From: an uncultured virus (IMG/VR IMGVR_UViG_3300006925_002811)
Taxonomy: Duplodnaviria > Heunggongvirae > Uroviricota > Caudoviricetes
Direction: 5' to 3' (one strand)
Virus record (IMG/VR): IMGVR_UViG_3300006925_002811
Length of the DNA: 20,000 nt
Shown piece by piece: positions 4,863 to 18,689 of the stretch. Every line of letters begins with the position of its first letter. The first letter of the stretch is position 1. The notes beneath the pieces are model-generated. The model ran no database searches. It saw nothing but the letters and a program-made list of their open reading frames with translations, and had not been told where the DNA came from. A program made the position numbers and the translations under genes.

Positions 4863-4879
4863 TATTTATCTAGTAAATA
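4863..4879. promoter_or_regulatory. Back-to-back T4-type late promoter cores serving two divergent genes
   Basis: ATAAATA on - strand (4863-4869) and TAAATA on + strand (4874-4879) in the short divergent intergenic gap. Confidence 0.6.
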
Positions 4880-4885
4880 TAGCAT

Positions 4886-5350
4886 ATGAACGGTTTCAAG
4901 GTACAGTTTGAAGAGATAAGAGCAGTTTGGGAAACCAAACTTTGGCCTCATCGCGAAAGTGCAATAGAGCCAATGAGTGTAATGACTTGGCCTTTTGAAG
5001 GCGACCCTGATGAATATGATATGAGTATATTAGACAAGTATACCCCTACATTCTTTGGAGTAGCAAAAGACCGTAAACTAATAGGTGTGAACTCAGGACA
5101 CAGAACATCAGATATGCATTATCGCAGTAGAGGTATTTGGGTTGATCCTAAGTATAGAAAATCTGGTGTTGCACAATATCTATTTAATGTAACTGAGTTA
5201 CAAGCAAAAAAAGAGAACTGTGAAATGATTTGGAGTTTACCAAGAGAAACCGCCTTAAGTGCTTATACCAAATTTGGCTTTGAAACTGTCGGCGGCTTTA
5301 TTAAAACTGAGACTTCAGAGTCTAATATTTATGTTAGGAAGATTCTGTAG
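4886..5350 (+). CDS. GNAT family N-acetyltransferase
   Basis: Acetyl-CoA motif A (RGIWVDPKYRKSGVA) and motif B-like ALSAYTKFGF. Confidence 0.85.
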   Translation: MNGFKVQFEEIRAVWETKLWPHRESAIEPMSVMTWPFEGDPDEYDMSILDKYTPTFFGVAKDRKLIGVNSGHRTSDMHYRSRGIWVDPKYRKSGVAQYLFNVTELQAKKENCEMIWSLPRETALSAYTKFGFETVGGFIKTETSESNIYVRKIL

Positions 5351-5894
5351 ATTCCTGTGCTTTGGCTCTTGCTTCTCTAACATCTGATAAGTATTGTACC
5401 ATAGTATCAGCATCACTAACTTGGAATGGATCGCCATCTGCGTTATCATCAAAACCAGGTTCAATAAACATTTGTTCTACAATACCGTTATCAATAACCA
5501 TACTGTATCTCCAACTTCTATAACCAAATCCAATATTAGATTTATCAATTAGGAAACCCATTTTTCTTGTAAACTCGCCGGCTCCATCTGGAACAGGTTT
5601 TACATTTTCTACTGATAGGCTCTTAAACCAAGAGTTCATAACAAAACTATCGTTTACACTGATACAATATACTTCGTCGATATCTAAATCTGTGATATCG
5701 TTATACGCGGCTTCGTATCCTGGTAAATGTGTACTTGAACAAGTTGGTGTGAATGCACCTGGTAAAGCAACAAGTACTACTCGTCTGCCAGTAAACATTT
5801 CACTAGTAAGCATATCTTTCCAAGCAAATCCAGGTGCTTCGTCAATTTGAATTCTAGTTTTAAATGTTACGTTAGGTGTTGTTACATAAAACAT
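5334..5894 (-). CDS. Peroxiredoxin (Prx5/type II, redoxin family)
   Basis: PGAFTPTCS peroxidatic-Cys motif, SVNDSFVMNSW, RSWRYSM; SD-like AAGGA upstream. Confidence 0.93.
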   Translation of the reverse strand: MFYVTTPNVTFKTRIQIDEAPGFAWKDMLTSEMFTGRRVVLVALPGAFTPTCSSTHLPGYEAAYNDITDLDIDEVYCISVNDSFVMNSWFKSLSVENVKPVPDGAGEFTRKMGFLIDKSNIGFGYRSWRYSMVIDNGIVEQMFIEPGFDDNADGDPFQVSDADTMVQYLSDVREARAKAQESTESS

Positions 5895-5922
5895 ATTTTT
5901 TCCTTTATAATTATACGGGTAT

Positions 5923-7128
5923 TTATTTTACCTTTACTAGTGCTTTGGCTAATTCTTGGCAAAGTTTTTTACAATCTGCATCATCGTTATATGGAGCATA
6001 CGATATTCTTACTATACCTTTACCTCCGCTTATTCTATCTACTATAGGGTGAGCACATACTTTACCAGTTCGTATAGCAACGTCTGTGTTTGACATTAGT
6101 TGTCCTACATCAGCACTATGTCCTTTGATAGGTATTAAACTTATTACATTTGTGTCAAATCCTAGTTCAGGATATACTCTACAATTAGGTAATACATCAA
6201 CACCATAACTAAGTAAACTCTGTAGTACATCTTTCTCTTGTAAATATATAGTAGGATAACCTACATATCTTATCATTTCACAAGCAACACCGAAGCCAAT
6301 AATGTTTGCAATATCCGGTGTTCCTGGACAATGTTTTGCTACACCTTGTTTTAGTGATACACTATCAAACGACACTGAATCAACTGCGCCACCGCCATAG
6401 TAAAGAGGAACTAAGTCTTCAAAATCAAATGACGTATATAATGCTCCAATGCCAGTTGGTCCATACATTTTGTGTGAACTAAAAACTGCAAATTCAACTT
6501 TTGTTTTTGTTAAGTCTATTTTTTTGTGTGCTACAGTTTGACAAAAATCTATACATACACTAGCACCGTATTTGTGTGCTAAGTCAGTTATGGCTTCCCA
6601 TGGTTGTGTAACTCCTGTTACATTACTTGTAGCACAAAAACTTACTAATAAATCTTGCCAACCTCCAGCATGTTTATCTAGTAGTTTTTCTAGTTCGTAT
6701 AAGTCAATTTCACCATTAAAATCATTTATAGGCATAACAGCAATACTATCGTCTGACGTACTTTTACCTTGTGTTAGCCAAGGAACAATATTAGCATTAT
6801 GTTCTGCTTCTGTTACAATAACAGTTTTCTTATCTCTCATCCAACGTGCTATCATGTTTAAGCCTTGCGTTGTACCAGCGGTAAACATTAGTTGACTTGC
6901 AGGAACATTAATAAGGTTTGCTACTTGTTCTTTTGCGGTTTCTACTGCAACAGCAGTTCTCTCGCTGATAGCATATTCGCCTCTGTTTGTGTTAGAGCGA
7001 AAATGTTCGTAGTATTCATTCATTGCCTTTATTACTGACTCATGTGTTTGAGTACTGGCGGCGGAATCGAAATATGCTAATTCTGGGTTGTTGGCAAGAG
7101 TAGGGAATGATCTCTTTAGGTCAAGCAC
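5923..7128 (-). CDS. sufS: Group II (SufS/CsdA-like) PLP-dependent cysteine desulfurase, divergent
   Basis: YFDSAAST, SSHKMYGPTGIG (PLP lysine), catalytic Cys in IRTGKVCAHP (canonical RxGHHCA); GTG start overlapping the clpS stop. Confidence 0.85.
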   Translation of the reverse strand: MLDLKRSFPTLANNPELAYFDSAASTQTHESVIKAMNEYYEHFRSNTNRGEYAISERTAVAVETAKEQVANLINVPASQLMFTAGTTQGLNMIARWMRDKKTVIVTEAEHNANIVPWLTQGKSTSDDSIAVMPINDFNGEIDLYELEKLLDKHAGGWQDLLVSFCATSNVTGVTQPWEAITDLAHKYGASVCIDFCQTVAHKKIDLTKTKVEFAVFSSHKMYGPTGIGALYTSFDFEDLVPLYYGGGAVDSVSFDSVSLKQGVAKHCPGTPDIANIIGFGVACEMIRYVGYPTIYLQEKDVLQSLLSYGVDVLPNCRVYPELGFDTNVISLIPIKGHSADVGQLMSNTDVAIRTGKVCAHPIVDRISGGKGIVRISYAPYNDDADCKKLCQELAKALVKVK

Positions 7129-7424
7129 TATAGTTCTTCTGTAATAATCTGTAAAGGATGTCCTGCGTGACGAGATACAACCGTTGCTTCATGTACTTTT
7201 TGTTCGGCTATCTCTAATGAATAAGTTGCGACTATACTTTTACCTGACTCATGAATTTGTACAGTTATATCCTGTGCTTCTTCAATGTCCTTATTGAATA
7301 CTTCAATAAGCAAATGTATAACAAACGGCATAGGAGTAAAGTCGTCATTGAGGAAAATAACATTATATCTTTTAGGAAATGTTATCTCCGTTGCTGTTCG
7401 CTGTTCTGTTTTAGTTTGTGCCAT
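7128..7424 (-). CDS. clpS: ATP-dependent Clp protease adaptor ClpS
   Basis: YNVIFLNDDFTPMPFV, QIHESG, EIAEQK and HPL motifs of the N-degron adaptor. Confidence 0.93.
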   Translation of the reverse strand: MAQTKTEQRTATEITFPKRYNVIFLNDDFTPMPFVIHLLIEVFNKDIEEAQDITVQIHESGKSIVATYSLEIAEQKVHEATVVSRHAGHPLQIITEEL

Positions 7425-7429
7425 ACATC

Positions 7430-7437
7430 TATTTATA
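7430..7437 (-). promoter_or_regulatory. T4-type late promoter TATAAATA for clpS-sufS
   Basis: Exact TATAAATA on - strand, 5 nt before the clpS ATG. Confidence 0.75.
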
Positions 7438-7452
7438 TATGTGATAGTGTCA

Positions 7453-7476
7453 GGCGACTATCTTTTGGTAGCCGCC
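7453..7476 (-). terminator. GC-rich stem-loop after hsp20 (terminator or mRNA-stabilising hairpin)
   Basis: GGCGGCTACC-AAAA-GATAGTCGCC 16 nt after the hsp20 stop; no U-tract follows, so termination is uncertain. Confidence 0.5.
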
Positions 7477-7492
7477 CAACTACGTTACAGTT

Positions 7493-7951
7493 TTAGGAAA
7501 TGTCAATTGTTTTAGGTTTCATTGCCTCTGGCACGTTCCTAAACAAATTAACCCTTAGTATGCCATCTTCTAGTTTGGCACTTTCTACTTCTACATAATC
7601 AGCAAGTTTGAAAGTTCTTGTAAAGTTCCTTTCAGCAATGCCTTTGTGTAAAAATTCAACTGATTCGTCAGTATCTATAATGTTGGTTTTTCCTTCAACT
7701 TTAAGAGTACCATCTTCAATTGAGATGTCTATGTCCTTCTTTGTAAATCCTGCAACTGCTAAGGTAATAGCATACAACGGCTCTTCTTGTCCTTCAACCA
7801 TTTGTTTTGTAATGTTGAAAGGTGGGTAACCTGTTTGTGCAGTAGCAAATGATGGGTCATTGAAAAACTGGTCTGCTAGTCTATCAAAACCGATGCTCAT
7901 TTTATATAGTGGGGATAATGATTCAGATGTGAATCGTAATTGCTTTGTCAT
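7493..7951 (-). CDS. hsp20: Small heat-shock protein Hsp20 (IbpA-like)
   Basis: SIGFDRL, YPPFNI, LAVAGF, FLHKGIAERNFTRTFKL, AKLEDGIL and C-terminal I-x-I motif; AAGGAG SD. Confidence 0.95.
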   Translation of the reverse strand: MTKQLRFTSESLSPLYKMSIGFDRLADQFFNDPSFATAQTGYPPFNITKQMVEGQEEPLYAITLAVAGFTKKDIDISIEDGTLKVEGKTNIIDTDESVEFLHKGIAERNFTRTFKLADYVEVESAKLEDGILRVNLFRNVPEAMKPKTIDIS

Positions 7952-8012
7952 TGTTTTCTCCTTTATTAAGCAAGTTATAATACTTTTTAAACCCTATTGG
8001 CGAATAAAAAGT
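7952..8012 (-). promoter_or_regulatory. ROSE-like RNA thermometer in the hsp20 5' UTR
   Basis: mRNA reads CUUGCU-UAAUAA-AGGAG-AAAACA-AUG, with the U(U/C)GCU motif placed to pair with the SD; upstream hairpin ACUUUUUA...UAAAAAGU (7982-8012). Confidence 0.65.
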
Positions 8013-8014
8013 TC

Positions 8015-8500
8015 GCGGATCAGAGGAGCATTCGTTAGTGTGTGTCCTGTTCCTCTGTTCTACTTGGTAAACTTCTTCGTGTCTTTAAGTGTTGCCATCT
8101 AAAGCCGTTTGTTGGTTACCCCAAAAACCTAAAGCATTTATGTATTTCTACACCTATGTCTAGGGTGATTTGTATCAGAGCGTCTACTTGAATTTGATTC
8201 TCTCTCTTATCTGTGATATGCTATACATTACTGCGGAACATATCTGATCGTAATACAATCAATTTTGTTTATTTCTAAACTTGGTCTGTTAAACCCGAGC
8301 TGTACAGTAACTTAATACCGAGCTCTTTTGAAGATTTAACTTCCCTTTAAGTTAGTTAGTCGTCCTGACCAATCATTCGGTTTGTTTCACTTACGATTCA
8401 CTTACCTTGTATTAGAAATTCTTTCTTCCTAACTGCTTCTAAGTTCTACAGTAGACTTTTGTTACTTACGTTTCAATTGCCCTTGTAGTTCTTTTCTGCA
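8015..8500 (-). ncRNA. Large structured non-coding RNA, ROOL-like (~490 nt)
   Basis: No ORF >60 aa on the - strand in a ~600-nt gap of a tightly packed genome; starts just after an ATAAATA late promoter; at least ten stems, including GNRA-capped hairpins (GUUUA-GAAA-UAAAC, GUGUA-GAAA-UACAU, CCUA-GACA-UAGG); motif order resembles ROOL RNA as recalled, not searched. Ends approximate. Confidence 0.75.
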
Positions 8501-8514
8501 AAGATATTTATCTT
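8501..8514 (-). promoter_or_regulatory. T4-type late promoter core driving the ncRNA (and possibly hsp20)
   Basis: ATAAATA at 8505-8511 inside a short inverted repeat AAGATA-AA-TATCTT. Confidence 0.65.
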
Positions 8515-8560
8515 CTGGTGTTAATAATATGGTACTTTTTGGGTAAAAAATAGACTATTT

Positions 8561-8839
8561 TTAAGAAAAACTAAAAGATCTTAGTGATTCCAGTGGTAAA
8601 TCATTAAAACTTAGTTCAAATAGGCCTGCGTCAGTGGGTTGGTTAAATTGTGCTTCTATTATAATTTTAGGCGTGTAGCCGTCAACGTCCCAGGTACGCA
8701 CAAACTCTACATTAACTTCCTTATTAGAACTTTGCCATTTAAAGAAAGGTCGCAATGTAGATTGTACCATATCATCTAATATCCAATCTTCTACAGAATC
8801 GTTATATCGGGCATCAAGTATTTTAACTCTTGTTTTCAT
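8561..8839 (-). CDS. Hypothetical protein
   Basis: 92-aa ORF overlapping the upstream gene, co-oriented with the - strand block. Confidence 0.7.
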   Translation of the reverse strand: MKTRVKILDARYNDSVEDWILDDMVQSTLRPFFKWQSSNKEVNVEFVRTWDVDGYTPKIIIEAQFNQPTDAGLFELSFNDLPLESLRSFSFS

Positions 8840-9023
8840 ACTTCTCTAATTTTTCAAACTCGCTAACATGTATGTAGATGTTTCCTTCAGCATTTACAAA
8901 TGTATGATACTGTTCTAATCTAAAGTTTTTAGTACGCTCATCAAGTAGGCCTACATTAAATTGTCTCATTACAAAAGAATGAAATTCATGTACTGTTAAT
9001 GCTTTGTAAGTTTCAGTTTCCAT
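8823..9023 (-). CDS. Hypothetical protein
   Basis: 66-aa ORF, TAATG-coupled to the upstream gene. Confidence 0.7.
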   Translation of the reverse strand: METETYKALTVHEFHSFVMRQFNVGLLDERTKNFRLEQYHTFVNAEGNIYIHVSEFEKLEKYENKS

Positions 9024-9451
9024 TACACTATTACCTTTACTAAGTTCATCATAACTGCCGTACCACTTATAGCACTACCAATCATAATTGCTTTGTCGTT
9101 CCAGCAATGTCCTACATACACCCAGGATATGGCGGCTAATAAATATGCAATTTGTCCTATTGTACTAAAGCCTGCACTCATTATAAACACACCTAATACT
9201 CCAAACACAGTTGCTACCCATTTTACATAACTGTCAACTGTTCCTGTTGGTGTTGCAGGTTTTAAGTCATCAACTTCAGTTTGTAGTACATCCATCTCTT
9301 CTTTGAGACGTTTACGTTCAGCATTTAATTCTAGAGCAAGACGTCCAGCACGACTCATTGTACTGTCTTTAAATTGCTCCTGTACGTCAGAACTTAATTT
9401 AGATTCTACTACTTCTTGTTCCACCTTACTCATCTCACTCATAACATCCAC
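9023..9451 (-). CDS. Small 3-TM membrane protein with N-terminal coiled coil (DUF6552-like); paralog of the adjacent gene
   Basis: ATP...YVKWVA...W-x-x-VG-x-x-W-x-D-K-A pattern shared with 9439-9759; three hydrophobic segments; start could be 9442. Confidence 0.7.
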   Translation of the reverse strand: MDVMSEMSKVEQEVVESKLSSDVQEQFKDSTMSRAGRLALELNAERKRLKEEMDVLQTEVDDLKPATPTGTVDSYVKWVATVFGVLGVFIMSAGFSTIGQIAYLLAAISWVYVGHCWNDKAIMIGSAISGTAVMMNLVKVIV

Positions 9452-9759
9452 GGACCTATATAATCCCTAAATAATGTTCTAGCAAAAAGCATTATGCCTA
9501 CGCCATTTAAAAGCATTAATGCTCTATCTTTCCAAAGTATACCTACAATCATCCATCCTGTTACACCAACTAAACTTAATACAAGATCATAAAACTGCAA
9601 ACCATCAATGCCTCGCAAACTCATACTTGACAGTATAAAACAACTGGCTATCCATTTGATATACCAACTTGCATCATACTTAGGTGTTGCACTTTTATAA
9701 ATTCTATTACTGTTAGCAATCTCTTCTGGATGAAATGTATTACCTTTCTTGTTTTTCAT
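9439..9759 (-). CDS. Small 3-TM membrane protein (DUF6552-like)
   Basis: SATPKYDASWYIKWIAS...GWMIVGILWKDRALMLLN; three hydrophobic segments; ATG at 9759 (MKNKK) preferred. Confidence 0.75.
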   Translation of the reverse strand: MKNKKGNTFHPEEIANSNRIYKSATPKYDASWYIKWIASCFILSSMSLRGIDGLQFYDLVLSLVGVTGWMIVGILWKDRALMLLNGVGIMLFARTLFRDYIGPWML

Positions 9760-9919
9760 AATTCTCTGTTCCACTTGGTGGATTCCTATCAGTTCCGTTT
9801 GAACCTTTGTGTTCTTTTTTCTTACCCCAAATGCGTTCCCAACTATCTGCGTACTTGTCTTGGTCCTTGCTTATTTTTGACTTTATACTGTCTCCAGTTA
9901 TGTCATTCTTACTTGTCAT
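9740..9919 (-). CDS. Small hypothetical phage protein
   Basis: MTSKNDITGDSIKSK...YADSWERIWGKKK; start at 9919 overlaps the end of the upstream Zn-finger ORF. Confidence 0.65.
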   Translation of the reverse strand: MTSKNDITGDSIKSKISKDQDKYADSWERIWGKKKEHKGSNGTDRNPPSGTENYEKQER

Positions 9920-10082
9920 TTTCCGTTTGATCCTTTTTAGCATTTAACTTTTCGAATGTTTTAGAATACCATTCGTTGCTACAATATGCATCACAGAAAA
10001 CATGCTCCTGATCAGCAGTATAGTATTTAACATTATTTAAGTCAACTATTTTACCACATGTTGAACATGGTAATTGCCTCAT
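9909..10082 (-). CDS. Small Cys4 metal-binding protein (TRASH/YacG-like finger), 57 aa; not in the ORF track
   Basis: Hand translation MRQLPCSTCGKIVDLNNVKYYTADQEHVFCDAYCSNEWYSKTFEKLNAKKDQTENDK; CxxC...FCxxxC; ATGA overlap with the upstream ORF. Confidence 0.75.
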   Translation of the reverse strand: MRQLPCSTCGKIVDLNNVKYYTADQEHVFCDAYCSNEWYSKTFEKLNAKKDQTENDK

Positions 10083-10237
10083 GCTAAATTTTCTGTATCT
10101 ACAGTAACAGGAGCATCATAATACATTTCTTGGAATGTATCTAGTGTCCTGTTTGCTTTGCCTGAGATATAGCCTCCAGCAATTATTATTGCTATCAGTA
10201 AAATTATAATTATTTTTTCTGTTGTAGTTGCGTTCAT
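10079..10237 (-). CDS. Small single-TM protein, 52 aa; not in the ORF track
   Basis: Hand translation MNATTTEKIIIILLIAIIIAGGYISGKANRTLDTFQEMYYDAPVTVDTENLA; TAATG and ATGA coupling at both ends. Confidence 0.7.
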   Translation of the reverse strand: MNATTTEKIIIILLIAIIIAGGYISGKANRTLDTFQEMYYDAPVTVDTENLA

Positions 10238-10689
10238 TATTTTCCTATGTGCTTAACTTCGTTTTTGGGTACTACTTGATATGCACCTTTATTGTATGCT
10301 GGTGCAATAGTGTATGTAGAACTAATCTTTTGTTTTTCTCTCTGCCACTCTGCATTCTCACCGTCACCTTTGCTACTAGTCGGCATAGACCCACTCATAG
10401 GATATTTAGCATTAAACTCTTCTATGCGTTGTTGTGCATATGACTTCTGAGGTCTGTAATGTGTCCTATCTGCCCTGACATCTTTCTTAGGCTGTAAACC
10501 GTAACAATACTCTATGTACTGATCTAGTGTCTCGTACCTAAAGGCATGCATGTTATTGCGTTTACAATGTTTGTTATGTTTGCGCCACCTTAGTTCAAGC
10601 TCAGCCATTTTAGCCTTAGTCATCTTAGGCAACTTGCGTGTTTTACGAGTGTTTATGGTACTCAAACCTTGTTGCAAATGCATAGTCAT
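10237..10689 (-). CDS. Basic hypothetical protein of large myophages
   Basis: 150-aa Lys/Arg-rich ORF with C-terminal TIAPAYNKGAYQV motif; AGGAG SD and its own sigma70-type promoter. Confidence 0.8.
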   Translation of the reverse strand: MTMHLQQGLSTINTRKTRKLPKMTKAKMAELELRWRKHNKHCKRNNMHAFRYETLDQYIEYCYGLQPKKDVRADRTHYRPQKSYAQQRIEEFNAKYPMSGSMPTSSKGDGENAEWQREKQKISSTYTIAPAYNKGAYQVVPKNEVKHIGK

Positions 10690-10693
10690 AAAA

Positions 10694-10741
10694 AAACTCC
10701 TGTTACAGCATATAGTATAACAGGAGTTTAGTGTTTGTCAA
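10694..10741 (-). promoter_or_regulatory. Sigma70-type promoter overlapping a 12-bp inverted repeat that contains the RBS
   Basis: - strand TTGACA-16 nt-TATACT with extended -10 TG; inverted repeat AAACTCCTGTTA/TAACAGGAGTTT (10694-10729) followed by a T run. Confidence 0.75.
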
Positions 10742-10744
10742 GTA

Positions 10745-10906
10745 TTATTTTATTAGAATAGAAACAGTAAACATTAATAATGATACTGTCCCTAAAAAAA
10801 TAATAGCGACAAGGAGTGCAAAGAACAGTATTCCGCCAGGGCTAATATTCTCAGGCTCTCGTTTTTTGCCGACGCCAAGTACGGCACTAATTGCTTCTTT
10901 AATCAA
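10745..10906 (-). CDS. Small membrane protein, DUF2970-like, 53 aa; not in the ORF track
   Basis: Hand translation from TTG: MIKEAISAVLGVGKKREPENISPGGILFFALLVAIIFLGTVSLLMFTVSILIK; TTGA overlap with the upstream stop. Confidence 0.6.
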   Translation of the reverse strand: MIKEAISAVLGVGKKREPENISPGGILFFALLVAIIFLGTVSLLMFTVSILIK

Positions 10907-11082
10907 AATATTATTTGATTTAAGCCCATCACAGCCAACATCATTCCAAATACTAATAATTGAACTACTGCTGGTATTACCACAAACATCACCAATGGAT
11001 TAAAATCCATTCGGTTCCAATAATCTTCTTCTCTCCAGGCTATTGCTTCTTCTGGAGTTGCATCACGTACTTCATATCTCAT
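10903..11082 (-). CDS. Small single-TM protein, 59 aa; not in the ORF track
   Basis: Hand translation MRYEVRDATPEEAIAWREEDYWNRMDFNPLVMFVVIPAVVQLLVFGMMLAVMGLNQIIF. Confidence 0.7.
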   Translation of the reverse strand: MRYEVRDATPEEAIAWREEDYWNRMDFNPLVMFVVIPAVVQLLVFGMMLAVMGLNQIIF

Positions 11083-11083
11083 A

Positions 11084-11182
11084 TTATAATCCTGTAGGCG
11101 TGAGTGCTAATATACTAACAAAGAAAGTTAATGCTAATGTAAAAACTTCTAAGTTCTCTTTTAATTTTTCTAAATTTAACAT
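11084..11182 (-). CDS. Micro-protein with one TM helix, 32 aa; not in the ORF track
   Basis: Hand translation MLNLEKLKENLEVFTLALTFFVSILALTPTGL; tiles between its neighbours. Confidence 0.55.
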   Translation of the reverse strand: MLNLEKLKENLEVFTLALTFFVSILALTPTGL

Positions 11183-11301
11183 ATTACAAATAATCGAGTT
11201 TCATGACCACGTTGTTCTAAATCTCGTAGAGCACGATTCACTCCTGCAACATCATACTGAAGAGCGAATAAGAGTACTGACATACAAATAACTCGTGACA
11301 T
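11176..11301 (-). CDS. Putative micro-protein, 41 aa; not in the ORF track
   Basis: Hand translation MSRVICMSVLLFALQYDVAGVNRALRDLEQRGHETRLFVIC; downstream of ATAAATA at 11353-11359; no clear SD. Confidence 0.45.
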   Translation of the reverse strand: MSRVICMSVLLFALQYDVAGVNRALRDLEQRGHETRLFVIC

Positions 11302-11407
11302 GAAAACCCAAGGTTTATGATATACAGAATTGTTATATCATTTTATAAACGATATTTATGACAGGATAACAGATATGTTAAGTAAACAGGTTCGTTTTAG
11401 TCTATTT

Positions 11408-11836
11408 TTATTTTGGGGGATTGTTGTGGAGGCGATGTGTTTTCTTTTCGCCCCAATTTTCAATGGCTTCTTTGATTGACTCTTCTGCTAGAATTGAACA
11501 ATGTAGTTTCAATGCAGGAAGTTCTAAGGCATCTGCTATGTCTTTGTCCTTGACTTGTTGTGCTTGTTCGATTGTCATGCCTTTAAGCATTTCAACAAAC
11601 ATAGTCGAACTTGCAATAGCACTACCACAACCATATGTTTTGAATTTTACATCTTCAATAACATCTGTGTCAGGATTAATTTTCAAGTCCAACTTCATTA
11701 CGTCACCACATGCTGGTGCGCCAGTCATGCCAGTAGCAACATTTGGATCTTTTGGATCAAACCTACCAACACCATGTGCTTCAGGATTATGAAGTACATT
11801 TTTAAATCTGTCTACAACTTTATTTGAATATGCCAT
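11408..11836 (-). CDS. iscU: Fe-S cluster scaffold protein IscU
   Basis: MAYSNKV, GAPACGDVMKL, FKTYGCGSAIASS, KLHCSILAE: all three Cys plus Asp and His ligands present. Confidence 0.96.
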   Translation of the reverse strand: MAYSNKVVDRFKNVLHNPEAHGVGRFDPKDPNVATGMTGAPACGDVMKLDLKINPDTDVIEDVKFKTYGCGSAIASSTMFVEMLKGMTIEQAQQVKDKDIADALELPALKLHCSILAEESIKEAIENWGEKKTHRLHNNPPK

Positions 11837-11851
11837 AATAATATTTATCTA

Positions 11852-13123
11852 TTAGTGTGCGTTCCATTTAACTTTACTAAAATCAACACCGTCTAAATAC
11901 ATATCCCATAAAGGTGATAGTATTCTAAGTTTTTCAATAACATTGAGCATTGTTTCGGCAACACTATCAACTTCTTCTACAGTAGTTGTTCTTCCAAAAC
12001 TAAACCTAATACTACTGTGTGCTAACTCGTCATCTCTGCCAATAGCTCTAAGTACATAACTGGGCTCTAAACTAGCACTTGTACATGCACTACCACTGCT
12101 TACAGCAACGTTGTCTAGTGCCATAATCAAAGACTCGCCTTCTACAAAGTTAAAACTTATGTTGAGTATGTTTGGTACTTTGTGATCTAATGAGCCATTA
12201 ATATATGTTTCTTCTATACCTATAAGTTTTTCTAGTAATCTATCATGCAACATTTTAACATGTTGTTTATTTTCTTCCATTTCAAGCCTAGCATACTTAA
12301 ATGCTTCACCCATTCCTACAATTTGATGTGTAGGTAATGTTCCGGACCGCATACCTCTTTCGTGTCCACCACCGTGTATTTGTCCTCTTAATCTTACTCT
12401 TGGCTTTTTTCTAACATACAATGCACCAATACCTTTTGGACCGTATGTTTTATGAGCAGATAAACTCATTGCGTGTACTGGCAGTTCTTGTAAGTTGAAG
12501 TCTATTTTACCAGTTGCCTGTGCGGCATCAACATGAAACATAATTTTATTTTCAAAACAAAACGCACCAATCCCTTCAATATCATTGATTGTGCCCATCT
12601 CATTATTGATATACATAATGCTAACAAGTATAGTATCGTCTCTAACAGCATCTATAACCATTTGTGCTGTAACTATACCATCTTCATTAGGATCTAAGTA
12701 TGTAACTTCAAAGCCTTGGCGTTCTAATTCTCTGCAAGGATCTAATACTGCTTTATGTTCTATTTTACTGGTTATAATGTGTTTGCCATTAGTTTCATAA
12801 AATTGTGCTATACCTTTAACAGCAAGATTATCTGCTTCAGTGGCTCCACTAGTAAAAATTATTTCTTTAGGATCTGCACCAATTAAGTCTGCTACATTCT
12901 TTCTAGCAGTTTCAACGGCCTCATCTGCTGTCCAACCAAAACTGTGACTTCTACTTGCTGGGTTACCAAACTCTCCATCTTCAGTCATGTACTTAACCAT
13001 AGATTCAACTACACGTTTATCGCAAGGTGTAGTAGAAGCATAGTCCATGTAAATTCTATCCCCAGTAGGCTGGGCCTTGGTGTCTATTGTTGCTGTTATA
13101 TCTCTATGTTGTTTATGATCCAT
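11852..13123 (-). CDS. iscS: Group I cysteine desulfurase IscS
   Basis: [26 protein letters not shown] (PLP Lys), SSGSACTS catalytic loop, proteobacterial-type C-terminus [18 protein letters not shown]. Confidence 0.97.
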
Positions 13124-13124
13124 G

Positions 13125-13565
13125 TTATCCGAAGTCTTTTAGCATTTTACGAATTTCTAGAGCATGTTGCTCTTCCATTCCAATTTGGCCTCTTGCATAT
13201 TCTTCTAACATTATACTTGCATCAGCAACTTCTGTCAATAACTTTTTATACATTTCAACTGCTGACACTTCGTGATCTAAACTTTCTTGCAATATCTGTA
13301 ACACACTATGATCATGATTTTCTTCAATGTGTGCAATTTTTTGACTTGGGTGTCCACCAAAGCCTGTGATGTATTCACCTGCTTGTAAGGCGTGTGCTAA
13401 ACTTTCGTTTGCTTGTTCTTGCAGGAATGCCACAATAGGAATTCTGTTAGGCCCTGTAATCATTAATGAACTATGAGCATATCTAACTACTCCAGCCATT
13501 TCTAACTCTACTATTTTATTTAGTATATCGCATACTGCGGTTGTATTCAGGTCTCTCAATTCCAT
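13125..13565 (-). CDS. Ferritin-like / bacterioferritin-family protein
   Basis: Four-helix-bundle pattern ELE...ESLAH...GGHP...DHE...EEQH. Confidence 0.85.
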
Positions 13566-13571
13566 GTATCC

Positions 13572-14021
13572 TTATTTTCCCGGTAAGCCTGCTTCTATAA
13601 ACTTACCTATTGTTTCTATATCTTTATCAGACAACATGCCGGCCTGTGCCCACATAGTGGAACTCATTGCACCTACTTGTCCTCTGTTCTTGTAAGTGTT
13701 AAGTCTGTCCACAATATATGCTGAACTTTGTCCAGCAAGTTTTGGGAATACTGCCATACCTTCACCTGCCTGTCCGTGACATGCGGCACAACCTGCCCAT
13801 AAACTTCTGATGTCACTAAACTCGTCTAAGTTAGCCAATGCTTGTTTGCGTTGTTCTATCTCAGATGGTGTACCGTTAAGTGCTACATAATCTACATAGC
13901 ATTGTCCAGTACAACTACTATTGCTGGATGCTCCAGTGTATTCTAAATTTGGATATACTTTAGCAACAAAAAACATACTTATTGCTAGACATCCTAATAA
14001 CGTCATTCCTAATTCTCTCAT
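13572..14021 (-). CDS. Membrane-anchored or exported mono-heme c-type cytochrome (c553/c4-like)
   Basis: N-terminal hydrophobic helix, CAACHG heme motif, FPKLAGQ, distal Met region MSSTMWAQA, LSDKDI. Confidence 0.9.
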   Translation of the reverse strand: MRELGMTLLGCLAISMFFVAKVYPNLEYTGASSNSSCTGQCYVDYVALNGTPSEIEQRKQALANLDEFSDIRSLWAGCAACHGQAGEGMAVFPKLAGQSSAYIVDRLNTYKNRGQVGAMSSTMWAQAGMLSDKDIETIGKFIEAGLPGK

Positions 14022-14797
14022 TTCTCTCCGTCGTAATACTCAAGACGTTCAATATCGTCTTCAGTTGTTTCTTCGCCATATTGTATTTCTATAATATGAC
14101 ATGGTCCATCAGTTTTATTTATTACCTGATGCCAATCTCCACGTTTAACTGTAAAAGAATCATCAGTTTTTAATTGATGTATTGTAAAATGCTCAGGTTC
14201 TCCCGGGGAATATTTAATTTCACACTCGCCTTTGCTGATAAACCAAGATTCACTACGTTTAAAGTGTCTTTGATAACTTATCCCTTTACCTGGTTCTATA
14301 ATTAGTTCTTTTACTTTTACTGCCGTGTCTTGGAACAAGTCTGAAAACTCTCCCCACACACGGCGCTCGGTTGGATACTTCCACTCTTTCAAGATCCAAC
14401 TACTGCTGTTGGCTTTGTTATCTCCACCAACTGCAAATTCGAAACTGTAACCTTCAACTGACATTTCTGGAATGTTGTCTTTCTTTCTATCACCTCCGTT
14501 ACAAAAGACATATTCGTGATGTTGTCCGAATGCATTCCTGACATCTATCAAGCCTTTGGTTACACTTCCGTCTGCATCGTCTACCCCGTACACATTATCA
14601 ACCATGTCCATACGTTGTAGGATTAAAGCACGTTCTTCAAAAGGCATAAAAGGTCTGCCTTTCTTTCTTGTTAGCCAGTCATCACTGTTTACTAAAACAA
14701 CAAGTTTTTCACCATACGCTGATGCTGACTCTAATAAATTAATGTGTCCACTATGTAATGGATCAAAGCCGCCGCTGACTACAACGATCTTTGACAT
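14018..14797 (-). CDS. Cytidylyltransferase-like (HxGH) domain fused to a cupin (mannose-6-phosphate isomerase type II-like) domain
   Basis: SGGFDPLHSGH, NSDDWLTRKKG, NGGDR, NSSS; C-terminal RVWG...SYQRHFKRSESW...WHQ...IIEIQYG...EDDIER. Confidence 0.88.
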   Translation of the reverse strand: MSKIVVVSGGFDPLHSGHINLLESASAYGEKLVVLVNSDDWLTRKKGRPFMPFEERALILQRMDMVDNVYGVDDADGSVTKGLIDVRNAFGQHHEYVFCNGGDRKKDNIPEMSVEGYSFEFAVGGDNKANSSSWILKEWKYPTERRVWGEFSDLFQDTAVKVKELIIEPGKGISYQRHFKRSESWFISKGECEIKYSPGEPEHFTIHQLKTDDSFTVKRGDWHQVINKTDGPCHIIEIQYGEETTEDDIERLEYYDGEK

Positions 14798-15223
14798 TTA
14801 TCGTAAACCGGATGATCTAAGATGTCTATCAACAGCAGACTTCTTATCTGAATACTTCCTTCTCTTACGTTTGGATTTCATAAACGCAAACCCTGATACT
14901 TCTTGTAGTGGTGCCTCACCTGAGTAGATTTTTTTGTTCTCTTCTCGTTGTGTTCTTTTGATTGCGGCATCTTTTCGTCTTTTACGTTTAGCACTAGGCT
15001 TTTCGTAAAACTCTCGTTTTGCTAATTCTTTTTGCCTATCTGCATTTTCTAAAATTTTCTTTAGTTTTCTGATAGCACCATTAACATCACCGTTTCTAAC
15101 TTCAACACTAGCACCCTTGAACTTATCTAAAAAGTTCTCTTCTTTTCTAGGACCTTTCTTATTATTGAACGACTTTTTAAAGTTGTTCCCGGTGTTCTTG
15201 CCCCAGTTATTTTTGTTTGCCAT
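14798..15223 (-). CDS. rpsU: Phage-encoded 30S ribosomal protein bS21 with long basic N- and C-terminal extensions
   Basis: Core VEVRNGDVNGAIRKLKK...ELAKREFYEKPSAKRKR matches the bS21 pattern. Confidence 0.88.
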   Translation of the reverse strand: MANKNNWGKNTGNNFKKSFNNKKGPRKEENFLDKFKGASVEVRNGDVNGAIRKLKKILENADRQKELAKREFYEKPSAKRKRRKDAAIKRTQREENKKIYSGEAPLQEVSGFAFMKSKRKRRKYSDKKSAVDRHLRSSGLR

Positions 15224-16484
15224 ATATTCCTCGGTATATTCTATAGTTAGTGTCTATCACTGTTTGTCCATTATCGTATTTTAATAATGGAAAATTTTGT
15301 TCTTCTACTGGATATTTATGAAACTCTATCTCATTCACACCCTGTTTTCTGAGTAGTGGTGCCCTGTACATTATACTCAATAATGTATTCTCTATCAACG
15401 TCTTAAGTCCTCTAGCACCTAACTCCGACCTGCTGGCAATCTTTGCCACTTCGTCTAAATACTCTTTACCTATGTTAAGATTTATATCATCAAGACTTAT
15501 AAGTTCTTTGTATTGATCAACAATATTGTTATCAACTGTATCTAATATTTGTCGTAAATGTTGTTGGTTTAATTCCTCAAGTACTGCTATAACAGGTACC
15601 CTACCAACTAGTTCAGGTATAAGACCATATTGTACAATGTCTTGAGGTGTTGTTTGATTGAGTATAGTATTCTTTTCTTCGGTTGTAATAAGTTTGGAGC
15701 CAAATCCTATTTGAGAATTTTTAGTTATGTTTTTAGAAACAATTTTGTCTAGTCCTACAAACGCACCACCTAATATAAACAATACGTCTTTTGTATCAAA
15801 TTCTATTGTGCTGTCTTGAAACTTAGTATTAGACTTACTTGTTTTAATCTTAACTATAGTACCTTCTATCAGTCTTAAGAGTGCTTGTTGTACTCCCTCA
15901 CCACTAACATCGCGTGTAGAGGAGTTAGATTCGCTCTTACGGGCCTTTTTATCTATCTCGTCTATGTAAACTATACCCTTTTGTGCTTTATCGAGGTCCC
16001 AGTCAGCAATGCTCAGCAGACGCTCTAAGACGCTCTCTACGTCTTCTCCAACGTATCCTGCTTCAGTTAGTGTAGTTGCATCAGCAATAGCGAACGGTAC
16101 TTGTAATTTTTTAGCAAGTGTTTTAGCAAACAATGTTTTACCTGTTCCTGTTGGACCAACTAATAGTACATTTGTTTTATCTATTTCAATTGATGTCTGT
16201 CCTAGTATTCTTTTATAATGATTATAAGCACTAACTGATAACAGTTCTTTGGTATCGTTATGTGCAATTATATGTGAATCTAGAAACTGTTTAATATCTT
16301 GTGGATTAGGAAGGTCCTCTAACTTTAATGAATTTTCATTTGTTTCACCTGCTGAAACTACAATATCGTAACTCAATATGATACATTCATTGCAAATGTA
16401 AACATTTGGACCTGCAATAAGTTTGTCTACGTTGTCTCTATTTTTTCCGCAAAAACTACATTGCAGATTTTTATTATCTGGCAT
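15207..16484 (-). CDS. clpX: ATP-dependent Clp protease ATPase subunit ClpX
   Basis: Zn-binding CSFCGK...ICNEC, Walker A GPTGTGKT, pore-1 GYVG, Walker [24 protein letters not shown] loop, GARGL. Confidence 0.96.
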
Positions 16485-16508
16485 TTATTCATTAACCTCT
16501 GTTTTTAT

Positions 16509-17282
16509 TTACCTTTTCTTTCCAGTATACTTTTTGTTTGTCGGTTGCCCTTCATCTGTAGGCAGAGGCATTGCCCAGAAGCCAATTTTACGTTTAACTT
16601 CTTCTTCGGATTCCTTGATTAAAAGATTATAGATTTGTTTTTCTGTGAGGTCCTCTTTGTTCAACTCACTCTGTGACATAAGTCTTGCGGCTTCATGTAA
16701 GTCTTTTGTAGATGCTGATTCAATTACCTGAGGCGGCTGATCTACGAACTCTGTTACTGGTACTTCTACTATAACTTCCTTTTCGACTATCTTAACTTCA
16801 GGCTTACGTTTTTTTAGTTTTTGTATTTCTGCTGACAAAACTAAATTCTGTTGTTTAAGTTTTGCATCCTCTGGGTTTACAACTTCTACTACTCGCTCTG
16901 GTCCAGGGACTTCCACTCTCCTTTCTGGTCCGGGGACCTCAACATTAACGATTCGCTCTGGTCCTGGGACTTCCTTTTCGACAGTGACCACTGTCTCCTT
17001 TTCGACCTCGACTGGGACTTTAACTTCGACAATCTTCTCGACGATCTGTTCAACTTCAATCTCCTTAGTAACTATTACTTCTTTAATAACTTCAACTGGG
17101 ACTTCTACTTCTACTTCTACTATCTTTTCTACTTCTCTATCTACTATAACTTCTTTTGGTTTTTTGTCAAGTTCTTTTTTTAATGATTCTATGTTATCCA
17201 ACGCATCAACAAGCATCTCCATTGTGTGTTGATATTTTGCATAAAGTTCGTCGAACTTATCTTTAACTTCTTGTTCCGTCAT
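16509..17282 (-). CDS. Glu/Val/Lys/Pro-rich repeat protein (alveolin/articulin-like repeats)
   Basis: EKIVEVEVEVPVEV-type repeats and three EVPGPER-x-V units between predicted coiled coils. Confidence 0.75.
   Translation of the reverse strand: MTEQEVKDKFDELYAKYQHTMEMLVDALDNIESLKKELDKKPKEVIVDREVEKIVEVEVEVPVEVIKEVIVTKEIEVEQIVEKIVEVKVPVEVEKETVVTVEKEVPGPERIVNVEVPGPERRVEVPGPERVVEVVNPEDAKLKQQNLVLSAEIQKLKKRKPEVKIVEKEVIVEVPVTEFVDQPPQVIESASTKDLHEAARLMSQSELNKEDLTEKQIYNLLIKESEEEVKRKIGFWAMPLPTDEGQPTNKKYTGKKR
16885..16975 (-). repeat. Intragenic imperfect tandem repeat encoding EVPGPER-x-V three times
   Basis: TCTGGTCC-N-GGGAC recurs three times on the + strand at 27- and 33-nt spacing, in frame. Confidence 0.85.
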
Positions 17283-18621
17283 CGTCTAATTTCTTCTTAA
17301 GTTTTTTTTCAAGAGCCTTTACTGCTCTAGGAGTTTTAATAGCATTCATATCAATTTCTTTTTCAACTTCCTTTTCTATTATAACTTCTTTTTCTACTAT
17401 AACTTCCTTGACTTCGGGAACATCTGGCATATTGTCGCCATATATTTTTCTAGATTGAGTTTCAAAATCATCATCGTCGAGTATCTCATCTACAAAATGA
17501 GGATCTGGTCCTGTTTTTTCTAAGTTGATTCCGTAACGTAACAACGTCTGGTTGGCCGCAATAAGTAACATAACTGCTAATGGATCAAATACTACAACAA
17601 GTAATATTATAAACAAACGTATTGCTTGTCCTAATACTTCTTCCCCGCTTTCACCATATATAAGTTCGGCAACATATTTGATTGGTCCAACTTCCTTCTC
17701 TATGTTTCTAACAACACTTTCTGCTTCAAACTTCTCATCTTTGATTACTACAATGTTTGCATATATTGTATCTATTTGATTATTGTAATCATCTATTTTT
17801 ACAAGTATCTCATCTTGATCTGTGCTACTGTTTTCTCTAAGCCTGTTAATCTCTGCATTAGCATTGTTTATGTCTGCCTGTGCTTGTTCTCTATACTTGT
17901 CTATGTTTGCTTGTTGCTTGTCAATATCTTCTTTGATATCTGCACGTTGTTGTGATTGCTGTTCAAATAGTTCATTTGCCTGTGCAACATAATCGATGGT
18001 TTCTGTTTCGGCACGTCTGAACGTTCCACCTGCATCAGTTTCTATAACTTCAACACCTTTGTTTCTTAAATCGTTTACTGCTTTATCTAATACTGCTAGT
18101 TGGTCTCTGAGCCTATCTATTTGTCCTTGTGCGTAATCAATATCGCCTTGTACTCTTTCCCATGCGCCATCTCTTATAGATACTTGTTGCTGTATACTTG
18201 AACTAACATCTAATCCGCCACCAGTTTGTAAACTAGTAATACGGTCTTCTAGTATGTCTATCTTATTTTCTTCTCTTAGTATTTGTCCATCAATTCTTTC
18301 TACTACAGCAAATGCATCTGCACTACTGCCAGATACTTCCTGGTGTGCTTTACTGAGATAGCCAAATATACCTATGCTTGTAATAAGCATTAAAAATAGT
18401 ACTGCCGTAGACAAATACATCTTAACCAGTAATGAAGTTTCTTTCCAATACCTATATAGCCAACTTACTGTTACTAATTTGCCAACTTCAAGTGTACCGG
18501 CCATAACAGCAATACTCATAGCCGCTCCTTGGAAGAACGTCATAAGACCTACTATACTGAACCATGCGGCTACACCGGCAATAGCCAAGGCTGTAAATAA
18601 TGTTAATAATCCGAATAGCAT
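17263..18621 (-). CDS. Multi-TM membrane protein with a long central coiled coil
   Basis: Three N-terminal hydrophobic helices (LEVGKLV, SIGIFGYLSKAH), long heptad-rich region, EVGPIKYVA, further TM with VFDPLAV, C-terminal EVKEVIVEKE repeats. Start revised to 18621 because ATAAATA lies at 18627-18633 and the longer ORF would overlap the divergent gene. Confidence 0.8.
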   Translation of the reverse strand: MLFGLLTLFTALAIAGVAAWFSIVGLMTFFQGAAMSIAVMAGTLEVGKLVTVSWLYRYWKETSLLVKMYLSTAVLFLMLITSIGIFGYLSKAHQEVSGSSADAFAVVERIDGQILREENKIDILEDRITSLQTGGGLDVSSSIQQQVSIRDGAWERVQGDIDYAQGQIDRLRDQLAVLDKAVNDLRNKGVEVIETDAGGTFRRAETETIDYVAQANELFEQQSQQRADIKEDIDKQQANIDKYREQAQADINNANAEINRLRENSSTDQDEILVKIDDYNNQIDTIYANIVVIKDEKFEAESVVRNIEKEVGPIKYVAELIYGESGEEVLGQAIRLFIILLVVVFDPLAVMLLIAANQTLLRYGINLEKTGPDPHFVDEILDDDDFETQSRKIYGDNMPDVPEVKEVIVEKEVIIEKEVEKEIDMNAIKTPRAVKALEKKLKKKLDDDGTRS

Positions 18622-18689
18622 ATACATATTTATCCTATATTGATGCCAGTAGTCAAGAATTCTAGTATATGTTAATGCTAAATATAGGC

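Follow-up and report, generated by a model that had tools for sequence, protein, structure and literature searches.

The element described here lies in a stretch of 20,000 nucleotides (nt), called the window below, which comes from the reverse strand of a 62.6-kb IMG/VR record of an uncultured Caudoviricetes virus (IMGVR_UViG_3300006925_002811; estimated completeness 27%). Its minus strand carries hsp20, encoding a small heat-shock protein (sHsp) of the IbpA type, followed by clpS, a sufS-like gene and a peroxiredoxin gene (prx). Directly upstream of hsp20 is a gap of 609 nt (7952-8560, minus strand) without any sense-strand open reading frame (ORF) of 50 or more amino acids (aa). Judged by sequence comparison, this gap holds a large structured RNA of a new family, built onto the ROSE-like RNA thermometer leader of the phage hsp20 gene. 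Read from the 5' end, an invariant ATAAATA comes first, then conserved helices over about 450-520 nt and lastly a two-hairpin thermometer, with the features listed below.

8512-8556, minus strand: conserved upstream block, with a sigma-70-like TTGAnn-N16-19-TATAAT arrangement in many relatives, degenerate in the window
8505-8511, minus strand: ATAAATA, resembling a T4-type late promoter; inferred RNA start about 6 nt downstream (about 8499)
8434-8500, minus strand: P0' helix enclosing P1 (8500-8495 with 8439-8434), from RNAalifold; 3 of 6 pairs changed on both sides
8443-8491, minus strand: P1 hairpin with a C-GUAA-G tetraloop; 10 of 15 pairs changed on both sides
8368-8416, minus strand: P2 hairpin (CAAGG...GAAUCGUAAG) with a C-GUAA-G tetraloop; 6 of 13 pairs changed on both sides
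8121-8367, minus strand: variable centre with optional hairpins, from the alignment; longer by about 150 nt in the window and its closest relatives
8066-8120, minus strand: P3 helix, which encloses the hairpin P3a (loop AUGGCAAC); 9 of 15 pairs changed on both sides
8015-8063, minus strand: P4 hairpin, whose loop (ACACACACUAAC) is the best conserved in the RNA; 10 of 13 pairs changed on both sides
7982-8012, minus strand: P5 hairpin, the counterpart of hairpin I in short ROSE-like leaders; 4 of 8 outer pairs changed on both sides; aligns to ROSE_3 hairpin I
7958-7977, minus strand: predicted thermometer hairpin, in which UAACUUGCU (7977-7969) forms imperfect pairs with AAGGAG (7963-7958), the ribosome-binding site
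7493-7951, minus strand: hsp20, IbpA-type small heat-shock protein (Pfam HSP20, 1e-17; PHROG 432)

An earlier, sequence-only reading of the window had placed a large noncoding RNA just ahead of hsp20, with an upper limit at 8514. Both points hold. Besides being free of ORFs, the gap gave a folding z-score of -3.76 relative to shuffled sequences on the minus strand and of -1.25 on the plus strand (20 shuffles each), its sequence is conserved and covaries in relatives, and the proposed limit is consistent with the invariant ATAAATA at 8505-8511. No conserved small ORF was found across 33 relatives of the gap RNA; a frame of 12 codons that begins within the P3a loop was rejected as coding, being missing from the L060 group.

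Helices were derived with RNAalifold from a main alignment of 33 copies. Locus L091, which begins with ~770 nt of unrelated sequence holding a eukaryote-like ORF, was for that reason excluded from alignments A3 and A5, and was kept in A4. Compensatory changes occurred in 27 of the 49 pairs predicted from the full alignment, versus 6-11 when the partners were slid by one to three columns; the covariation score was 0.358 versus 0.03-0.08 for the slid pairings, and none of 500 shuffles reached the observed score. Both halves of the molecule behaved in this way when treated separately, with 19 of 34 pairs compensatory in the 5' domain (3-9 when slid) and 24 of 45 in the 3' domain (7-11 when slid). 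The comparative evidence thus indicates that the gap holds a real structured RNA.

Among the copies, the P0' pairs read from the alignment run through GCAAU/AUUGC, ACAAU/AUUGU, GCUAU/AUAGC and GUAAU/AUUAC, and the helix is weak in the window itself, where three to four pairs form. P1 and P2 are alike in layout. In the variable centre, repeated UCUUCAAAAGnGCnCGGG units pair with each other, as GAGCAC/GUGCUC in some copies and GAGCUC/GAGCUC in others when read by eye. Two other pairings were discarded. A long-range closing helix between 5' GCAA and the UUGC of the thermometer, drawn by RNAalifold on the full alignment, was rejected as the main fold: it showed no changes on both sides, its 5' strand covarying with the nearer P0' partner; an alternative hairpin, GCGAA/UUCGC, was lost in copies that carry GCGAU or GCGAC, and P5 was supported instead.

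The last ~65 nt of the leader, by their sequence and predicted pairing, are a ROSE-like RNA thermometer of the type that controls cellular ibpA and hsp genes, a feature that the sequence-only reading had missed. A U(U/C)GCU motif paired to the ribosome-binding site is given as the hallmark of ROSE-like thermometers in the available parts of PMC3669281 and PMC11182007. In our alignment UAACUUGCU is invariant in 33/33 copies, as is TAACTTGCT within the thermometer hairpin, and RNAalifold pairs UAACUUGCU with AAGGAG via a bulged G and a G-U pair. The predicted helix, CUU-G-CUU with AAGGAG, is 93.8% paired, and one of its pairs changed on both sides (UA in 18 copies, AU in 12). The leader ends at the start codon of hsp20, and with ROSE elements it shares this place in the 5' untranslated region of an sHsp gene. 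The Rfam model ROSE_3 (RF02523) aligns to it end to end, with P5 on hairpin I and ACUUGCU...AGGAG on hairpin II. An alternative reading of UAACUUGCU, as an enhancer like the 'epsilon' of T7 gene 10 or as a MotA box, was dropped in favour of the better-supported ROSE motif.

The same arrangement, without the large RNA, is widespread. Among 33 distant phage hsp20 loci, U(U/C)GCU stands no more than 70 nt from the start codon in 30 and ATAAATA lies 59-66 nt ahead of it in 28. Of 79 cellular IbpA relatives (44-51% identity, mostly from gamma- and alphaproteobacteria), 65 carry U(U/C)GCU ahead of the ribosome-binding site. The common form is therefore a late-promoter motif, hairpin I, the thermometer hairpin and hsp20. 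Since distant phage hsp20 genes carry this short form only, the big RNA is best described, on comparative grounds, as a clade-specific insertion into a thermometer leader. One 5.6-kb viral contig with a short-thermometer hsp20 also carries a glutamine riboswitch (L010:994-1042, minus strand; RF01739, 53 bits, gathering score 35).

Could the insertion be a passive passenger, the relic of a mobile or selfish RNA or DNA element or a 5' stabiliser that does no more than protect the message? Its restriction to a single clade, the fact that the short form works elsewhere, its mosaic distribution and the varying length of its centre (the span from ATAAATA to ATG is 398-588 nt across copies) would suit such an origin. 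What speaks against it is purifying selection, with compensatory changes on at least nine helices and invariant loops, despite Hsp20 proteins that are just 54-60% identical; moreover, repeats or ORFs typical of mobile elements were not found. We consider a passenger unlikely.

The inserted RNA and hsp20 were found together in every evaluable copy. Forty hsp20 loci were fetched from viral contigs, four of which share both the 5' and the 3' block of the gap. In two of the carriers (L004 and L005) the gene upstream of the RNA lies on the opposite strand, and therefore the RNA element travels with hsp20. For a wider scan we used as pattern the DNA of the P2 hairpin, which lies about 300 nt or more from hsp20 and is thus independent of it. 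All 10 hits in viral contigs were true copies, and hsp20 came next in each. A loosened pattern gave 44 hits in metagenome contigs, of which two (L093 and L103) were GC-rich chance matches and were dropped; among the 42 true copies, five end at the contig edge before the hsp20 position and the other 37 are followed by hsp20, so that hsp20 comes next in 37/37 evaluable cases. Three of the eight hits of a 3' pattern (L046, L048 and L049) were likewise chance matches and were dropped. The metagenome and viral loci overlap, some being the same contigs, and unique full-length sequences number 34. A survey of this linkage had been proposed with the sequence-only reading, and the adjacency of RNA and hsp20 turned out to be conserved.

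When 50,697 phage records were searched with the region by blastn, the one match was to pelagiphage Mosig, in its hsp20 coding sequence, and at the sensitivity of blastn no cultured phage of that collection has the RNA. Mosig, a T4-like member of the Kyanoviridae with a similar ClpX-like/S21/hsp20 order, has just 117 nt before hsp20. An nhmmer search of the gap against 80 cellular ibpA loci returned nothing at E <= 1. A covariance model of the 5' domain found exactly one copy in the record of the window and one in the 119-kb record of a relative, with none in two near-complete short-form phages and none in Mosig. Median identity to the window is 79.5% for the 3' domain versus 71% for the hsp20 coding DNA, a difference that points to selection on the RNA. 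In locus L081 the 5' domain is 86% identical to the window and hsp20 68%; in L078 the figures are 64% and 84%. By these sequence comparisons, modules of the RNA are exchanged between lineages independently of hsp20.

The promoter-like motif ATAAATA is present in 37 of 38 copies, where 90-124 nt separate it from the 5' pattern downstream, and in all 33 aligned copies it is single before the ATG and stands at the 5' end. Hence a second ATAAATA is missing in 33/33 copies, in agreement with the earlier statement that no separate recognisable promoter lies between the RNA and hsp20. A strict regular expression for the sigma-70-like block farther upstream matched in 18 of 38 copies, the window's not among them. 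Ten of the 11 ATAAATA in the window (4863-18633) are on the minus strand, which holds most genes, and in several cases a gene starts 6-26 nt downstream (4863-4869; 5920-5926, ahead of prx; 11842-11848, ahead of iscU).

The RNA is present in RNA libraries. Thirteen runs recorded as RNA hold 30-45% of the words sampled from 7300-8700, and contigs of all four RNA libraries examined, from four studies, cover 8022-8491. The upper ends of these contigs, at 8482-8491, lie a few bases below the inferred start at about 8499. Three contigs bridge the 3' domain and hsp20 (X1 record 2, 7408-8036; X2 record 17, 7578-8088; X7 record 23, 7752-8020). Co-transcription of the RNA with hsp20, as earlier proposed, is thus favoured by the anatomy of the locus and by these contigs, a support at the level of contigs that stops short of proof. 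Stretches without coverage (8522-8700 in all four runs; hsp20 in X15) were not taken as evidence and not used. In L091:1-780 and in X1 record 6, the RNA, from 8485 on, is joined to an unrelated 180-aa ORF with a signal-peptide-like start and a lysine-rich end. This eukaryote-like ORF is probably joined through a chimera of cDNA or assembly, the same junction letters in X1 being a loose end.

The main rival interpretation is that the inserted part is a stable, trans-acting large noncoding RNA, functionally analogous to those of the ROOL and GOLLD type, that only has the strong late promoter in common with hsp20 and is freed when the P4 loop is cut; it would act on a partner in the host or the phage, a candidate role being to bind sHsp oligomers and so disturb the IbpA feedback on heat-shock control. 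Contigs from three studies end inside the P4 loop: X7 record 26 at 8034, where adapter letters follow, X1 records 2 and 3 at 8036 and X15 record 10 at 8038, the last three without loose ends. We read these ends as weakly suggesting a processing site; a block that strains have in common also stops there, and at such edges assembly graphs branch and assemblies break. The RNA is large and ornate, carrying two hairpins with GNRA caps and a 10-nt loop that is strictly conserved, which fits a trans-acting molecule, as does the exchange of its modules independently of hsp20 seen in L081 and L078, and IbpA is reported, in the available part of PMC10474464, to bind structured leaders. The RNA was, however, never seen apart from hsp20 in 47 evaluable places, and prediction yielded no terminator-like site for the minus strand. 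P5 follows P4 within a few bases, and therefore the thermometer and the inserted part are physically integrated. We hold a trans-acting RNA to be possible, and less probable than the cis-acting leader described below; processing of the RNA from the hsp20 leader is possible as well.

Membership in ROOL or GOLLD themselves, which the sequence-only reading had suggested, found no support and is scarcely credible. All that speaks for it is the general likeness of a large phage RNA. With Rfam 15 (4227 families), no family reached its gathering score within the window. Searches of 7700-8900 and 8040-8512 at thresholds up to E = 10 listed a few weak and scattered matches, with neither ROOL nor GOLLD nor any other large bacterial RNA in the list. 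Searched against the complete 62.6-kb record, the ROOL model RF03087 (gathering score 99.1 bits) matched nowhere at E <= 1, and 14 control genomes also gave no match; GOLLD was excluded via the whole-library Rfam scans only. ROOL and GOLLD often adjoin tRNA islands in phages or prophages, an association that is typical and not obligatory, and ARAGORN found no tRNA in the 20-kb window.

Two weak Rfam matches, to PsrR1 on the plus strand and to freshwater-2 on the minus strand, were judged to be chance or confined to the ribosome-binding region. Freshwater-2 scored 17 bits at 7949-8009 in the window and 19.2 bits at L019:3918-3997, with a gathering score of 49.9; these matches rest mainly on the AAGGAGAAAAC-AAUG end. 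The family might be a freshwater counterpart of such leaders.

The protein encoded behind the leader has IbpA as its top NCBIfam match, at 115.9 bits and under the cut-off of 212. According to the available part of PMC10474464, the IbpA proteins of E. coli and Vibrio repress their own translation, binding the thermometer leader via an essential arginine, R93 in E. coli. We mapped this position via Vibrio homologues, where it is residue 94, and found the aligned arginine, within GIAER or, in two cases, GIGER, in 47/47 Hsp20 proteins of the clade; in the phage protein it is residue 108.

Three further genes complete the run downstream of hsp20.

7128-7424, minus strand: clpS (Pfam ClpS, 4e-26), a conserved neighbour of hsp20
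5923-7128, minus strand: class-V aminotransferase of the SufS family, a cysteine desulfurase (TIGR01979 sufS, 295 bits; cut-off of 475 not reached)
5334-5894, minus strand: peroxiredoxin of the Redoxin family (Pfam Redoxin, 1.6e-23); prx also occurs in locus L002

As earlier noted, hsp20, clpS, sufS and prx are co-directional, all four on the minus strand, with a gap of 68 nt between hsp20 and clpS, an overlap of 1 nt between clpS and sufS and a gap of 28 nt between sufS and prx. The idea of a conserved gene run survived in part. The order RNA-hsp20-clpS is constant, with clpS next in 33/33 loci that had enough flank, whereas sufS-prx is found in near relatives only. Farther carriers of the RNA (L004-L006) have hsp20, an L33-like ORF, ClpS, SufB/D and a SufC-like ATPase, in that order. 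Thus, a Suf-type neighbourhood persists among relatives and the exact run does not. In two of these loci (L004:4493-6463 and L005:6496-7191) the ORFs are a 67-aa ribosomal protein L33-like ORF (25.6 bits, cut-off 25), ClpS, SufB/D (486 aa) and a SufC-like ABC ATPase.

An 8-base-pair hairpin (7453-7476, minus strand) follows the hsp20 stop codon, between hsp20 and clpS, and the only TATAAATA of the window (7430-7437, minus strand) ends 5 nt upstream of the clpS ATG (7424). Because both sit between the two genes, clpS may have a late start of its own, with a nearly leaderless message, and the run perhaps comprises more than one transcription unit; a single TATAAATA in the window is not above chance (2.7 expected).

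Elsewhere in the window, 11408-16484 (minus strand) holds a dense set of host-like genes: IscU/NifU (11408-11836), IscS (11852-13123; 680 bits, above the cut-off), a ferritin-like gene (13125-13565), cytochrome c (13572-14021), a cytidylyltransferase/mannose-6-phosphate isomerase fusion (14018-14797), ribosomal protein S21 (14798-15223) and ClpX (15207-16484; 501 bits). The phage therefore encodes both Isc- and Suf-type genes of Fe-S assembly as well as ClpX and ClpS. At 9023-9774 (minus strand) lie two adjacent, overlapping ORFs of 142 and 111 aa, both matching DUF6552, which look like tandem paralogues.

The reading that we favour, with a probability of roughly 55%, sees in the whole gap a single long 5' leader of hsp20, structured and made of two parts that differ in origin, with the inserted domain acting in cis. 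It starts from the observed fold, conservation, fixed place before hsp20, lack of a second promoter motif and presence in RNA libraries. On this model hsp20 would be transcribed late, from ATAAATA through the whole leader. By analogy with cellular ibpA, the last hairpin would shut the ribosome-binding site in the cold and open it on warming or when chaperone is titrated away. Between ATAAATA and the thermometer the clade would have gained a compact RNA of 330-520 nt (P0', P1, P2, the variable centre, P3 and P4). This domain could set the stability of the message or the folding of the thermometer, or could enlarge the structured surface available to the sHsp-mRNA feedback known for IbpA, and cleavage in the P4 loop may leave part of the RNA behind as a stable fragment of its own.

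Several observations weigh against this cis-acting leader. ROSE_3 stays below its gathering score of 43, with 14 bits in the window and 30.1 bits for the full model in L019, one of the distant phage loci with the short form; the architecture is the same in both. The cellular ibpA loci L105 and L110, both with the motif, also gave no match at gathering scores, and the ROSE_3 model is therefore narrow. Opening of the ribosome-binding site by temperature is predicted to be modest and to vary by copy: upon in-silico melting the probability of an unpaired GGAG in four copies was 0.02-0.25 at 5 C and climbed to 0.27-0.46 at 45 C, and it stayed near zero in two copies including the window, where the freed P4 strand pairs with GGAG in the cut-out segment. 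In the Hsp20 proteins the R97 equivalent is present, and the K98 equivalent is T or S and hence not cationic. The window's promoter motif, GATAAATA, matches seven of the eight positions of the T4 late-promoter consensus, and the 11 ATAAATA of the window are not above the chance mean of 9.1. The start of the RNA, its end and its temperature response are predictions. Contig depth was higher over the RNA (12-2900) than over hsp20 (0-14) in 4/4 libraries, as would fit a separate stable RNA; these depths, taken per contig and including relatives, cannot rank parts of a gene and are a weak pointer only. Finally, a role in cis leaves the need for 330-520 nt, two GNRA-capped hairpins and a strictly conserved loop unexplained.

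A bolder proposal, which we regard as doubtful, is that the ~450-nt fold could be a new class of stable large phage RNA, cut from the leader in the conserved P4 loop, that binds oligomers of the phage or host sHsp (IbpA) and uncouples the aggregate-sensing feedback of the host, while the cut resets thermometer control of hsp20 translation.

No prior description of the large RNA was found in the literature; overlap of its 3' end with the short candidates of PMC10690425 is possible. The supplementary tables of that study contain 19 candidate structured RNAs within 25 base pairs upstream of HSP20 genes in IMG/VR, mostly from marine Caudoviricetes, and the words 'heat shock' and 'chaperone' never occur in its main text. 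The phage thermometers counted in the available part of PMC11182007 are lambda cIII, SPbeta blyA and one sigma-70 gene of a gut phage. Our results suggest that a ROSE-like thermometer is the standard hsp20 leader in many marine phages, right behind a late-promoter motif. The covarying RNA of 330-520 nt, which has no Rfam match and occurs in ocean RNA libraries of several studies, is a well-defined candidate for structural work and an entry to how phages tune a chaperone in late infection. It also bears on whether viruses use or subvert the sHsp-mRNA feedback, known only from gamma-proteobacterial IbpA.

Compared with known systems, the RNA shares with ROOL and GOLLD a large and elaborate structure and an origin in phages or prophages, as far as the available parts of PMC12286853 and PMC5737381 describe them. 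It differs from them in having no match to their sequence or structure models, in lying away from tRNAs and in being always fused to the leader of one gene. The candidates of PMC10690425 likewise adjoin HSP20 genes and probably include the short thermometer form; all 19, compared here by table entries, span 29-93 nt, and none is large. With the self-regulating IbpA of PMC10474464, in its available part, the phage system has in common an IbpA-type protein behind a thermometer leader, the aligned arginine and the aromatic residue of GYPP(F/Y)N; the K98 equivalent and the far larger leader set it apart, and binding of RNA by the phage protein is putative. The closest relatives are leaders of the ROSE_3 type. 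These too precede a gene of the IbpA type, with a U(U/C)GCU hairpin over the ribosome-binding site and a stable hairpin before it. ROSE elements are described, in the parts of the sources available, as having two to four hairpins and, in Pseudomonas, 61-62 nt. P5 and the hairpin at the ribosome-binding site would make up a two-hairpin ROSE element of this kind, to which the leader adds at least seven helices, exceeding that range. Unlike the ROSE elements described there, the window's leader is phage-encoded, stands behind a late-promoter motif, scores below the gathering threshold and is five to eight times longer.

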